Positions 41,780 through 44,644 of a stretch of 64,000 nt of DNA are shown here, piece by piece. A program made the translations under genes and the position numbers. The notes under the pieces were generated by a model that worked only from the letters and a program-made list of their open reading frames with translations, did no database searches and was not told the origin of the DNA. Source of the DNA: Leptospira sp. (GTDB lineage Bacteria > Spirochaetota > Leptospiria > Leptospirales > Leptospiraceae); NCBI GenBank assembly GCA_034439575.1, contig JAWXAQ010000007.1:32001-96000 (forward strand), written 5' to 3'. The first letter of the stretch is position 1. Every line of letters begins with the position of its first letter.

Positions 41780-42194
41780 GTTCTTTTAAATATAAGGAAA
41801 TCGTATCTAACATATATTCGGTGAAAAGAGGTGTAGGATTATAATTTTTTATATCAACCCATTCCATATAGTCATGCTCATCTGACATCTGAATTTTTCC
41901 AGAAATCAATTTTGCATGATAAGCAAGAATGATACACGGAACATTCTCTTCGTTTACTCTGTGTTTGTGAATCAAAAATGGTTTCGGGTTTAAGTCTATC
42001 TTAATGTCATTTCCCAATTCTTCAGAAATTTCTCGTTTGATACTTAAAGTCCAGTCCTCAAAAAACTCATGTTCGTCCATCCGTCCACCAGGCAGATCGC
42101 CTAGACCAGATTTTTTATCTCGCATAACAAGAAGTCTATCGCCATCGCGTAAAAAAACTTTTTGGGTGATTTGAAAAAAACCATGTTTACTCAA
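41772..42194 (-). CDS. NUDIX hydrolase
   Basis: [11 protein letters not shown]10-REISEELG (Nudix box with a 3-residue insertion); SDEHD..EWV. Confidence 0.9.
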
Positions 42195-44644
42195 ATGGAT
42201 TCACCCCATTGGTTTATTTGATGATCAACTGCGTATAATTTGGGTGAAGGAAGATTGTTATTTTTAAATTGATGAACCATACCTAGTGCTGTGCTTGTTA
42301 ATTGTGATATAATTGGATCCATAGATTCAGTAGGTACCCCAAAAAATAAAAAGTTGATCGGGCTACCGTCACTGAGTAAATAAATAGATTTTTCTATCAT
42401 TTGATCTTGGTATTGAAATTCAAAGTGAATTTTTCCACCTAAATCCATTTGCGTTTGCGGATCCAATATCCTACTAATTTCCAGTTTAACTATGTCGGAA
42501 CCTATCATCGGTTGTGTGGTAGAATTCAATTGGTTCATCCAATCTATAAAATCGCTAAATTCAACTGTTTTGGTCGAACCTGAAACTAAAAATAAATGTG
42601 GTTTTTTACTATTTAAAATCCAATTTTCGAAATTCTTTTGCTTTAATACACTATCGCCTGTTACACCAATGATCAAATCTACATTTAAAAATTCTTCATT
42701 ATCCACATCTGTAAAAGCTTTATAAAGAAATGGTTCATTCGATAAAATTTTTAAATCCACACGAATTAAATCGAGGTTGGATTCATGCAAACGTCCACCA
42801 ATCAAATATTTATCTAAAAATGTTCCGATATTTCCATGAGATCCGAGTAACATAATTTTACGTTTTGAAATTACCTTACCGAGACCATGCAAAGTGTTTT
42901 CGATGGCATTTAAAATCGAATATGCGACCTCTTTAGATTCCTCTTTGGATTTTTCTTTAGAAATCGCTATAGAATAAGCGGTTAGTGCAAGGATATTTGA
43001 TTCACCACTCACTTTAAGTAAACGATCAAATCCATTTCGAGTATGTTCTACTGTTCCGATCACTCGAGATAGTATAAATTCTTTTAATGATAGATTTTGA
43101 AATTCAATAGGACATTCAATCCAGAATTCTTCACAATACTCTAACAAAGATTTGTTTTCTAAACAGCGTTGATTTAATATTGGAGCGATGTATCCTCCAT
43201 CTTCAATGAGCAAAAATTTTTCTGAAGGCGATTTCAAAAAGAATAATTTATTTAAAAATAGGAATGTTGCGAGATAACGCATAGCATCATAAAATCCAAA
43301 TTTTGCTTCTTCCAATTTTTCTTTAAATTTGTTATGTTTCGCAAAGTCACTGTATAATGGCGATACACCATAATAAGCTTTGTTATTTTTTGTTAGCTTA
43401 AATTCGAGTCCAGCCATATAGAATTGTTCAGTGGGAATATCCAACAAAACATCCAAATAAATCGGAGGGATATTTCCTCCGTATTTAACAAAAGCTACAT
43501 CGATACTTTTTGCCTTTAATCTGCGAAATGTTTCAATCAATGAAATAATTTCCGATGTTATGTGGTGAATTAAAAAAATATTTATCCCTTCAAAACTAAA
43601 TTTATGATTATTACTATTAGCAATTTGTTCTAAAAGAATCATTCGTTTCAAATAGAAACTCGAATCGATTTGAGTTCTTCTTTTGTTAAAACTAAAATTT
43701 AATACTCGATCTAGTCTTGATAAATCAATATAAACTTCTGATCTTCCTAATTTAGCGAGAACAGTATTACCGTCTTTGATTACATTCGCAATATCAGTAT
43801 CTTCTAATATTAAAAATAATTTTTTCATTAGCGGGAGTGCATTTTCTATGCTTGAGGCTAACAATATTTGTCGAAATTGATCTTCCCAATAAAAATTAAT
43901 ATTCGTTAAACGACCGAAAGGAGTTTTCTCGATTTGTTCAAAAACTTTATTGAAATGCCTATTTTCTTCTTCAAAAAATGTTTCACCTTTTTGAGCCGCA
44001 CTCAATATACTATTTGCAAGTGACTCACTAATTTTTGATAAACCCGCTATATAGGTTCTGCGACCGATCTCATCTACTCGTTCATGATTAATTTTAAGTA
44101 AATCGAGAGTAGAATCAGTATTTGAATCTATAGTGATTCTTAAAAAAAATTCTCCGCTATGACTAAGACTCGTTACACGCTCGAGAAGTATCTGATAATT
44201 AACTGTCGTTTCTTTATCAATTTCATAAAATGGAAACAACAAACCAACAGATGGGTTAGTTCTTGCATCTTCGCCGTAAAATTCAGGATGTAATTTTCTA
44301 GCTATAGATTGCCTTTGAAACGTTCCCAAAACAATTCTTAAATCATCTTCAAACTGAGATCGATATAAGATCCAATCATTCAATACACCGGCTCTTGCAT
44401 AAACTTGCACATGTTGAATGTGCATATCAGTTAGTTCATGATTGATACTCGGATTTATTTTATATAAAAAGGAAACATCACCCGGAGCAGAATGCAATTG
44501 GTTTCCTATTTCTTCTGCCAATGACCTCGAAAGTATGGAAAGTCCAAAAAAGATTCTGAGACTTGATAAATCAATTTCCCAATTTCCTTCTGAGATTTTA
44601 AGTAAAGGCGGTCCAAGAGATGTTTGAATTTCTAATTGAGACAT
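42191..44644 (-). CDS. 817-aa protein with a C-terminal divergent S-adenosylhomocysteine hydrolase-like domain
   Basis: Motifs in AhcY order: [61 protein letters not shown]...MD. Confidence 0.7.

Follow-up and report, generated by a model that had tools for sequence, protein, structure and literature searches.

What does a protein of Leptospira do that keeps the fold and the chemical residues of S-adenosylhomocysteine (SAH) hydrolase, AhcY, while much of what surrounds them has been exchanged? The question is raised by a long reading frame, P0001, on the minus strand of a 64-kb stretch of DNA from Leptospira sp. (contig JAWXAQ010000007.1, positions 32,001 to 96,000), here called the window. 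AhcY is among the most conserved enzymes known, and to our knowledge few functional offshoots of it have been described. The original prediction, made from the letters of the window, took P0001 for an orphan in which a re-wired AhcY-like domain is joined to an N-terminal domain of unrecognised kind. Our analysis identifies the last ~490 residues of P0001, on the strength of family profiles and the modelled fold, as a true, very distant relative of AhcY. We further propose, giving the proposal an even chance, that the protein is an NAD-dependent enzyme of an undescribed AhcY-scaffold family, which would carry out a 3'-oxidation/elimination on an adenosyl compound other than SAH, together with a medium-chain dehydrogenase/reductase (MDR) encoded next to it.

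A very distant relative of AhcY

Taken alone, P0001 bears a marginal sequence likeness to AhcY. The NCBIfam model ahcY (TIGR00936) matches it with E=0.022 and 13.6 bits, below the family cutoff of 497.6; Pfam yields no significant family, with AdoHcyase unmatched at E<=1; and a phmmer search of the PDB returns one chain, the Sulfolobus SAH hydrolase 7r39_A, at E=0.29. With a profile of 47 homologs, the first 11 of the 29 PDB sequences found at E<=10 are all AhcY or AHCYL, the best being again 7r39_A (E=1.1e-4). The alignment of this profile to 7r39_A keeps the order of AhcY, residues 332-376 falling on 46-90, residues 520-673 on 156-297 and residues 737-811 on 335-407. A profile of the C-terminal part, built from 48 sequences of all phyla, likewise ranks 13 AhcY-type sequences first, and 21 of its 28 matches at E<=1 are of this type.

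The AlphaFold2 model of the whole protein (mean pLDDT 87.9, pTM 0.71) leads to the same family. When it was compared with the PDB by Foldseek, SAH hydrolases made up all 32 of the matches listed, with E values from 3.7e-15 to 5.9e-13 and a probability of 1.00; they are aligned over 492-538 columns, corresponding to the whole AhcY chain, with TM scores of 0.56-0.72 relative to the target and an identity of 12-18%. By this superposition, both Rossmann domains and the C-terminal tail of AhcY are present in P0001. As the family profiles match AhcY first and the model superposes on it, the likeness is confirmed, and with it the two-Rossmann fold that had been predicted. The AhcY-like part also lies at the C-terminus as proposed, but it begins near residue 329 (about position 43660), slightly upstream of the 43620 first given.

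A conserved core in a rebuilt active site

How completely are the motifs of AhcY retained? HMMER aligns IHHIT, GTVEHTRNG, K565...E569, the glycine loop, GVTG (to AhcY TTTG) and PINF..GVP..MD to AhcY chains, in the order originally claimed. Most of the motif pairs first listed are thereby aligned residue by residue; the remaining two, EDGGY with DDGG and SGST with IGHF, are paired by their position and by the whole-chain Foldseek superposition, without an HMMER alignment. The distance from the Glu/His position of EET/EHT to the Lys is 31 residues, compared with 30 in lupin AhcY, and that from the Lys to the glycine loop 36, compared with 34.

Conservation was read from an alignment of 74 full-length sequences, comprising the window protein and 73 loci at 29-78% identity to it; loci with a partial match (L028, L035, L045, L049, L060, L069 and L074) were left out. 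In the AhcY-like part, at least 73 of the 74 sequences carry the same residue at 55 of 489 positions. The first His, the Asp of DGG and the catalytic Lys, all three predicted to be kept, are found in each of the 74. Judged by these correspondences, the Lys, Asp and His that do the chemistry in AhcY, as well as the Thr and Glu that read its adenine, appear fixed across the family (73-74 of 74; Table 1).

The features shared with AhcY (TIGR00936; Pfam AdoHcyase and AdoHcyase_NAD) thus comprise the two-Rossmann fold, the HxTxE signature, the Asp after the fourth strand, the Lys with an acidic residue four positions on, a glycine loop, an acidic residue after strand 2 and the hinge N..G.P..M(D), in which P762, N764, F765, G769, E773 and D776 of P0001 are each present in all 74 sequences. 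Set against these, apart from the low identity and the scores below family cutoffs, is a series of exchanges. EETTT has become EHTRN and DN has become ES, both as foreseen and both visible in the HMMER alignment of the C-terminal profile to AhcY chains. GxGxxG has become GxxGxxG, a loop longer by one residue. By positional mapping, Ser-Thr takes the place of the His-Phe pair of GHF, and an invariant Lys comes next (G689-S690-T691 in 74 of 74); GHF is described in section 5.1 of PMC13406329, in the part available, as the His-Phe gate of the homocysteine channel, conserved in all SAHH. P0001 also has ~40 extra residues between the His signature and the Asp, an added N-terminal domain of 328 residues and a gene paired with that of the MDR. 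Together, the GxxGxxG loop and D630 are compatible with NAD binding, not being the canonical motif; an acidic residue at the end of strand 2 holds the adenosine ribose of NAD, according to the available part of PMC7765604. 'Re-wired' is a fair word for this protein: what serves oxidation, C4' deprotonation, protonation of the leaving group and adenine recognition is frozen across the family, and rebuilding has affected the homocysteine gate, the site of the 2'-OH and several contacts to NAD.

Spread of the family

Is the protein peculiar to this genome? The term 'orphan' had to be given up. In a protein database clustered at 90%, 129 homologs at E<=1e-3 were found among 7999 scored candidates, and of the 120 listed, 118 are 783-852 residues long, the other two being pieces of ~510 residues. 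Where names are given, they read hypothetical or uncharacterized, with the exception of two JGI records (P0084 and P0088) called 'S-adenosylhomocysteine hydrolase'. When 185,579 species were scanned, each represented by a single genome, 239 pattern matches turned up, 226 of them encoding a relative, so that the family extends over 226 species-representative genomes of several phyla. The best 80 of these 226 loci, which also served for all counts of neighbouring genes, come from saprophytic and pathogenic Leptospira, other Leptospiraceae and Leptospirales, Planctomycetota, Binatia, Acidobacteriota, Thermodesulfobacteriota, Gemmatimonadaceae and Lentisphaerae. A member is present in every Leptospira species sampled, pathogens included, and the nearest relative of P0001, itself the product of a saprophyte-clade Leptospira gene, is that of Leptospira ognonensis, at 78% identity.

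A quick maximum-likelihood tree of the 74 aligned sequences splits into two clades of 56 and 18 rows. The larger unites Leptospiraceae, other Spirochaetota, Planctomycetota, Binatia and Acidobacteriota, and 53 of its rows are paired with an MDR of 480 residues; in the smaller, the neighbour is a short MDR (5 Thermodesulfobacteriota-type rows) or other genes. Stand-alone domains were considered for six shorter matches, which include pieces from contigs of 602-5132 nt (one without a listed size) and are for this reason read as fragments.

In the full-text literature, a search for a bacterial AhcY-like family of such kind found none described and returned eukaryotic AHCYL/IRBIT and unrelated mentions only, most subscription journals lying outside its coverage. 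In the ESM Atlas, the nearest named clusters to residues 330-817 score 0.89-0.91, which makes them leads only; they hold unnamed bacterial proteins of 384-492 residues with mixed or partial AdoHcyase_NAD and 2-Hacid_dh_C labels. Clusters with such partial labels suggest that the wider AhcY superfamily may hold further uncharacterised offshoots of this kind.

An N-terminal domain of its own kind

The prediction that the N-terminal ~330 residues would go unrecognised proved accurate. Modelled separately from an alignment of 49 sequences, residues 1-328 give a confident AlphaFold2 structure (pLDDT 90.3, pTM 0.84). Foldseek finds no match to it at E<=1e-3, neither in the PDB, where the best has E 0.059, a probability of 0.06 and a TM score of 0.13, nor among viral models (BFVD); Pfam and NCBIfam hold no match, and the ESM Atlas no usable one. 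Scattered weak PDB matches to nucleotidyltransferase-fold and Rai1/DXO chains (probability <=0.16, TM <=0.29) were not relied on.

A profile of this domain, run exhaustively by HMMER against 1.84 billion representatives, retrieved 115 proteins at E<=1e-3, 79 of them at E<=1e-30. They have the same architecture of ~780-880 residues or are pieces of it, except for two false positives (P0226 and P0228, long weak matches that proved to be Ig-repeat and LRR-repeat proteins) and three longer forms, namely a fusion described below (L048) and proteins of 1025 and 930 residues with unassigned extra N-termini. Within the family alignment, a residue shared by at least 73 of the 74 sequences occurs at 9 of the 328 positions, compared with the 55 of 489 in the catalytic part. 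The domain would accordingly seem to be a family-specific non-catalytic scaffold or regulatory module and not a second active site.

A dehydrogenase partner

Which gene, if any, accompanies the family? The frame directly upstream of P0001 encodes a divergent zinc-dependent MDR, which Pfam recognises by ADH_N (25.8 bits, cutoff 23.5). CGxCSTD, GHE, EP and GP[RG]RLG (C55, H77, E78, E161, G185/G190) are invariant in 31 of 31 aligned sequences, such that the catalytic zinc ligands and the dinucleotide loop of a GroES-like/Rossmann MDR are kept; the structural-zinc cysteines are not conserved in Leptospira. A profile of the MDR finds RspB (4ilk) in the PDB at 8.9e-21, and also L-idonate 5-dehydrogenase and butanediol, threonine and galactitol-1-phosphate dehydrogenases. 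By sequence, it appears to belong with the polyol/secondary-alcohol branch of the zinc-dependent MDRs. With RspB, L-idonate 5-dehydrogenase, butanediol dehydrogenase and threonine 3-dehydrogenase it shares the Cys, His-Glu and Glu-Pro zinc ligands and the dinucleotide loop, but it counts 480 residues instead of ~340. An insert of ~120 residues, placed by eye from the alignment, separates the Rossmann core from the usual C-terminal segment, and the best PDB matches printed for the profile end by profile position 295. The protein stays below the equivalog cutoffs of NCBIfam (tdh, 53.7 bits against 458).

Searched by tblastn across the 80 loci, the MDR is found in 60, the NUDIX hydrolase in 32, a protein of 396 residues in 28 and the rhomboid protein in 27. 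The latter three are confined to Leptospiraceae, and the MDR is the sole neighbour that travels with the AhcY-like gene beyond them; the two genes stay together in Leptospiraceae, Planctomycetota and Binatia. Upstream sequence was sufficient for a verdict in 72 loci; in 55 of them, an MDR-type gene on the same strand ends -60 to +400 nt before the AhcY-like gene. Fifty of these are of the full-length 480-residue type and four are short (~320 residues, 24-29% identical to the longer type); the remaining one, from Leptospira borgpetersenii, is matched as far as residue 449 of 480. In 49 loci, the two genes are separated by -14 to +23 nt (median 4).

In the metagenome-assembled genome of a planctomycete (Planctomycetota; L048:6534-10391), the MDR and the AhcY-like protein form one in-frame reading frame of 1285 residues, with a linker of ~15 residues and no stop between them. 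This fusion counts as a single instance, since the similar entry in the representative library (P0134) is the same protein. No further fusion was found among proteins of at least 1431 residues, which is weak evidence. Two other candidates, L052 and L064, were discarded, their long frames being out-of-frame upstream extensions in high-GC DNA.

In L. borgpetersenii serovar Javanica (L038:7800-8040), the frame of the MDR gene changes close to the 3' end: a premature stop closes the first frame, and the conserved C-terminal segment is encoded in a different one. The adjoining AhcY-like gene is intact, and so are the MDR orthologs of L043 and L034. The frame change is either a real frameshift in a decaying genome or a sequencing error.

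Proposed function and its alternatives

What can be discerned from the fold, the conservation and the synteny, all three observed, about the reaction? The steps that follow go beyond them. NAD would be bound in the second Rossmann domain by the GxxGxxG loop, D630 and the Arg and Asn that replace two NAD-contacting Thr residues. An adenosyl compound would be bound and its 3'-OH transiently oxidised, a step suggested by the fold, the frozen triad of chemical residues and the adenine signature. By analogy with AhcY and AgmF, the 5' substituent would then be eliminated or exchanged and the ketone reduced back. The MDR, translationally coupled to the enzyme and probably in physical contact with it, would oxidise or reduce a hydroxyl or carbonyl group, either on the same metabolite or on the moiety set free. 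That the substrate is not SAH is suggested by the change of the His-Phe gate to Ser-Thr-Lys and of the 2'-OH Glu to His; the retained adenine-reading Thr and Glu of HxTxE, in turn, favour an adenosyl substrate over a wholly different one. In addition, the available part of a proteome table of L. borgpetersenii holds a separate 'Adenosylhomocysteinase', Q04NN6 (PMC9679693), and the family member of this species (P0039) is named 'hypothetical protein' only. This suggests, by annotation only, that the family adds to AhcY rather than replacing it.

Several points weigh against this proposal. The cofactor loop reads GxxGxxG and not GxGxxG, D482 and the gate motif were mapped by position rather than by residue-level alignment, and the binding of NAD and of an adenosyl compound is a prediction from sequence and fold. 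With N230 replaced by A560, N240 by S570 and the 2'-OH Glu by His, the chemistry could differ more than proposed. As to the MDR, its fusion to the AhcY-like protein was seen once, in one metagenome-assembled genome; by the criteria of our script, an adjacent MDR is missing from 17 of the 72 evaluable loci, L068 and L078 showing partial or nearby tblastn matches; and all 18 rows of the second clade have no MDR or only the short one. Finally, the neighbours in this clade, with STAS, HAMP and ParA-like proteins among them, hint at signalling rather than metabolism.

The latter point leads to an alternative that we consider unlikely, in which the protein is a non-catalytic sensor or regulator whose AhcY scaffold binds NAD(H) and/or an adenine nucleoside and relays the state through the N-terminal domain, in the manner of AHCYL/IRBIT. 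The large family-specific N-terminal domain would suit such a role, as would the STAS protein, the ECF-S-like membrane protein with HAMP and the ParA-like ATPase of the second clade, the rhomboid protease and the OmpL37-type surface protein upstream in Leptospira, and the presence of AHCYL structures (3gvp, 3mtg) among the best profile matches. However, the residues needed for chemistry only, that is the C4'-H Asp, the Lys base and the leaving-group His, are invariant across phyla in 74 of 74 sequences, and the partner that is conserved alongside has kept the catalytic zinc ligands of an enzyme. Each of the signalling-type neighbours, moreover, is limited to one clade and may reflect inherited synteny.

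It also seems improbable that P0001 belongs to the ordinary NAD(P)-dependent dehydrogenases, in the wider group around formate and glycerate dehydrogenase; its substrate would then be something other than a nucleoside, NAD(P) would serve as co-substrate, and the resemblance to AhcY would be one of fold only. The mixed 2-Hacid_dh_C/AdoHcyase_NAD labels of the ESM Atlas clusters at 0.89-0.91, as leads only, the changed NAD-contacting Thr-Thr pair, the variant glycine loop and a partner that is itself a dehydrogenase would all be in line with this. Yet the 32 of 32 Foldseek matches listed are SAH hydrolases and not 2-hydroxyacid dehydrogenases, and the HxTxE and K-x3-(D/E) motifs, specific to AhcY according to the available part of PMC7765604, are kept in 73-74 of 74 sequences.

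Least tenable is a very divergent true SAH hydrolase of the methyl cycle with an extra N-terminal domain, which could claim the AhcY fold, the retained catalytic Lys, Asp and His with the adenine-reading Thr and Glu, and the automatic name of the two JGI records, but which we regard as very unlikely given that the gate conserved in all SAHH (PMC13406329, available part) is Ser-Thr here by positional mapping, that EETTT is replaced by an EHTRN-type motif (position 536 being R in 71 and K in 3 sequences, the rest 74/74), that 13.6 bits stand against the ahcY cutoff of 497.6, that L. borgpetersenii has a separately detected 'Adenosylhomocysteinase' in the table of PMC9679693 as far as available, and that pairing with a dehydrogenase serves no role in SAH hydrolysis. 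The original conclusion that P0001 is probably not an ordinary SAH hydrolase is thus supported.

Returning to the preferred enzyme acting on a non-SAH adenosyl compound, one may extend it to a two-enzyme complex of the AhcY-like protein and the MDR in an undescribed adenine-nucleoside route, with the N-terminal domain as a new fold that docks both, an extension that we find doubtful. In such a complex, bound NAD+ would oxidise the 3'-OH and a 5' leaving group other than homocysteine would be expelled, possibly the thioether of methylthioadenosine or, in Leptospiraceae, the phosphate of an adenine nucleotide, for which the NUDIX hydrolase would be the source. It would fall to the MDR to trap the keto-ene intermediate afterwards or to process the moiety set free. 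If true, this would amount to a new salvage route, or to a new adenosine-derived metabolite or signal.

Comparison with known offshoots of AhcY

Is there a precedent for an AhcY scaffold that serves another purpose? The eukaryotic AHCYL1 and AHCYL2 (IRBIT) share with P0001 the AhcY fold, an N-terminal extension and a presumed role other than that of a hydrolase, and the profile of the C-terminal part finds their structures with E 5.3e-4 (3gvp) and 5.4e-3 (3mtg). The N-terminal extension of IRBIT is short and disordered. The P0001 family, in contrast, is bacterial, has a folded 328-residue domain of its own kind and strictly keeps the catalytic Lys, Asp and His, and hence does not fit the AHCYL/IRBIT class.

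Closer to our proposal is AgmF of angustmycin biosynthesis. According to the available part of PMC8599513, AgmF bears the annotation of an SAH hydrolase but has no activity on SAH. It is an NAD+-self-sufficient dehydratase, whose tightly held NAD+ transiently oxidises an adenine nucleoside before elimination takes place at the exocyclic carbon; it was modelled on the M. tuberculosis SAHH, and an H299A variant was tested. Likened by this description only, AgmF would be, as proposed here, an AhcY-fold enzyme acting on a non-SAH adenine nucleoside, and it indicates that the AhcY scaffold can be turned to another such nucleoside. Unlike P0001, AgmF is near enough to AhcY to be annotated as such and keeps the second His, and the available part of the paper describes neither an N-terminal domain nor an MDR partner.

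Beside AgmF and the eukaryotic AHCYL proteins, the P0001 family would be a third and much more divergent offshoot of AhcY, one that keeps the chemical core, loses the homocysteine gate, gains a domain without detectable relatives and is tied to a dehydrogenase. The scaffold and the probable chemistry are known; the active-site layout, the domain and the partner are new. If the substrate were identified, nucleoside metabolism would gain a reaction and a few hundred 'hypothetical proteins' an annotation, and the outcome could be a Leptospira-wide enzyme pair without a close counterpart in the searches run here.

Features and genomic neighbourhood

P0001 lies within a tightly packed run of minus-strand genes that extends from 47616 down to 40294 (Table 1), in a window with a G+C content of ~31-40%. 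The other genes of the window are those of an ordinary Leptospira chromosome, among them metG, MTHFR, thyX, prfA, coaX, birA, chemotaxis genes and SpoIIE-type phosphatases.

Table 1. Positions of P0001, its motifs and the genes of the same run. Roles in AhcY follow the available parts of PMC7765604 and PMC13406329, in lupin numbering; fractions and residue counts refer to the 74 aligned family sequences unless loci are named.
Feature	Positions	Strand	Remarks
P0001, whole reading frame	42191..44644	(-)	ATG start, 817 aa, no internal stop; N-terminal domain and AhcY-like two-Rossmann catalytic part
N-terminal domain, residues 1-328	43661..44644	(-)	Mixed alpha/beta, confident model, no detectable relative outside the family
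AhcY-like part, residues 329-817	42194..43660	(-)	Substrate-binding-type domain, NAD-binding-type Rossmann domain, C-terminal tail
HHITSE, residues 360-365	43550..43567	(-)	Counterpart of AhcY signature HxTxQ(E); HMMER alignment to 7r39, 3gvp, 6uk3; H360 74/74
H361			Lupin H62, protonates the leaving sulfur and holds the 5'-OH in AhcY; 74/74
T363			Lupin T64, reads adenine N1 in AhcY; 74/74
E365			Lupin Q/E66, reads adenine N6 in AhcY; 73/74
EDGGY, residues 481-485	43190..43204	(-)	D482 at the end of modelled strand 476-481; positional mapping, no HMMER alignment
D482			Positional counterpart of lupin D139, abstracts the C4' proton in AhcY (PMC13406329); 74/74
EHTRNG, residues 533-538	43031..43048	(-)	Replaces AhcY EETTTG; aligned to 6uk3, 3gvp, 7r39; E, H, T, N and G 74/74
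H534			Lupin E205, 2'-OH contact in AhcY; Glu to His, 74/74
T535			Lupin T206, 3'-OH and nicotinamide ribose in AhcY; kept, 74/74
R536			Lupin T207, NAD contact in AhcY; 71 R, 3 K
N537			Lupin T208, NAD contact in AhcY; 74/74
K565-x3-E569-S570-x-E572	42929..42952	(-)	Aligned to AhcY TK(S/Q)KFD; E572 74/74
A560			Lupin N230, tunes the Lys in AhcY; 74/74
K565			Lupin K235, base at the 3'-OH in AhcY; 74/74
E569			Lupin D239, 2'-OH contact in AhcY; Asp to Glu, 74/74
S570			Lupin N240, tunes the Lys and contacts NAD phosphate in AhcY; 63 S, 11 A
GxxGxxG, dinucleotide-binding-type loop, G601-G607	42824..42844	(-)	Aligned to 3gvp; G601 and G604 74/74, G607 72/74
D630	42755..42757	(-)	Ends the second Rossmann strand (modelled 627-629); aligned to the TE(V/I)DP region of AhcY; 74/74
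SGSTKT, residues 688-693	42566..42583	(-)	At the AhcY (I)GHF gate position, after modelled strand 683-688; S688-K692 74/74; positional mapping only
Hinge PINF..GVP..MD, residues 762-776	42317..42361	(-)	Counterpart of AhcY VNL..GHP..M(D/S); aligned to 7r39
V770			Lupin H404, hinge His with main-chain contacts to adenine in AhcY; V 64, A 5, I 5
MDR, divergent, zinc-dependent, 480 aa	44653..46095	(-)	Stop 8 nt before the ATG of P0001
Rhomboid	46096..46755	(-)	0-nt gap to the MDR
OmpL37-family protein, 283 aa	46765..47616	(-)	Heads the run; 9-nt gap to rhomboid; NCBIfam NF047447 287.9 bits, cutoff 150; no Pfam match
NUDIX hydrolase, 140 aa	41772..42194	(-)	TTG start overlaps the TGA stop of P0001 (TTGA); Pfam NUDIX 26.1 bits, cutoff 21.1
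396-aa protein	40589..41779	(-)	64-nt gap to the 76-aa frame; no Pfam, NCBIfam, PDB or PADLOC match; 28 of 80 loci, Leptospiraceae only
76-aa Cys-rich frame	40294..40524	(-)	No NCBIfam or PADLOC match; 22 of 80 loci, Leptospiraceae only
Terminator-like hairpin	40285..40303	(-)	After the last small frame of the run; consensus match only

The product at the head of the run is, by its sequence match, an OmpL37-family surface adhesin. At the other end, the hairpin may mark the end of the transcription unit; a promoter scan gave 25 sites against 30.0 expected from shuffles and is uninformative. No canonical ahcY was found among the 56 reading frames of the window scanned with Pfam, and a scan for EETTTG-like motifs found none in the window or in the 80 loci.

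The stop of the NUDIX gene is overlapped by 8 nt by the gene of the 396-residue protein. The similarity of the NUDIX hydrolase to Dcp2/MutT structures is weak (E ~1e-3), and by eye its Nudix box seems to carry three extra residues before the RExxEE core. A PADLOC match to the candidate defence family PDC-S07 (E 3.4e-10) was taken as generic Nudix similarity; the AhcY-like protein, the MDR and the 396-residue protein have no PADLOC match. The N-terminus of the 396-residue protein is, by eye, apparently hydrophobic.

The second clade has surroundings of its own. In six Leptonemataceae-like loci (L046, L050, L059, L065, L066 and L067, positions ~4500-8000), an unknown protein of ~590 residues, a PrmA-like methyltransferase and a small STAS protein precede the AhcY-like gene, the STAS frame being called in three of the six (L046, L050 and L067); the first of these proteins, of 591 residues, has no match in Pfam, NCBIfam or the PDB. 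In Thermodesulfobacteriota-type loci (L062, L070, L071, L073 and L078), a ParA-like ATPase, an ECF-S-like membrane protein with HAMP and the short MDR precede it.

Elsewhere in the window, on the plus strand at 25145..25750, a 201-residue frame of the phage integrase family lies between a TelA-like gene and a 512-residue protein without a Pfam match, and may mark the remnant of a small mobile element.

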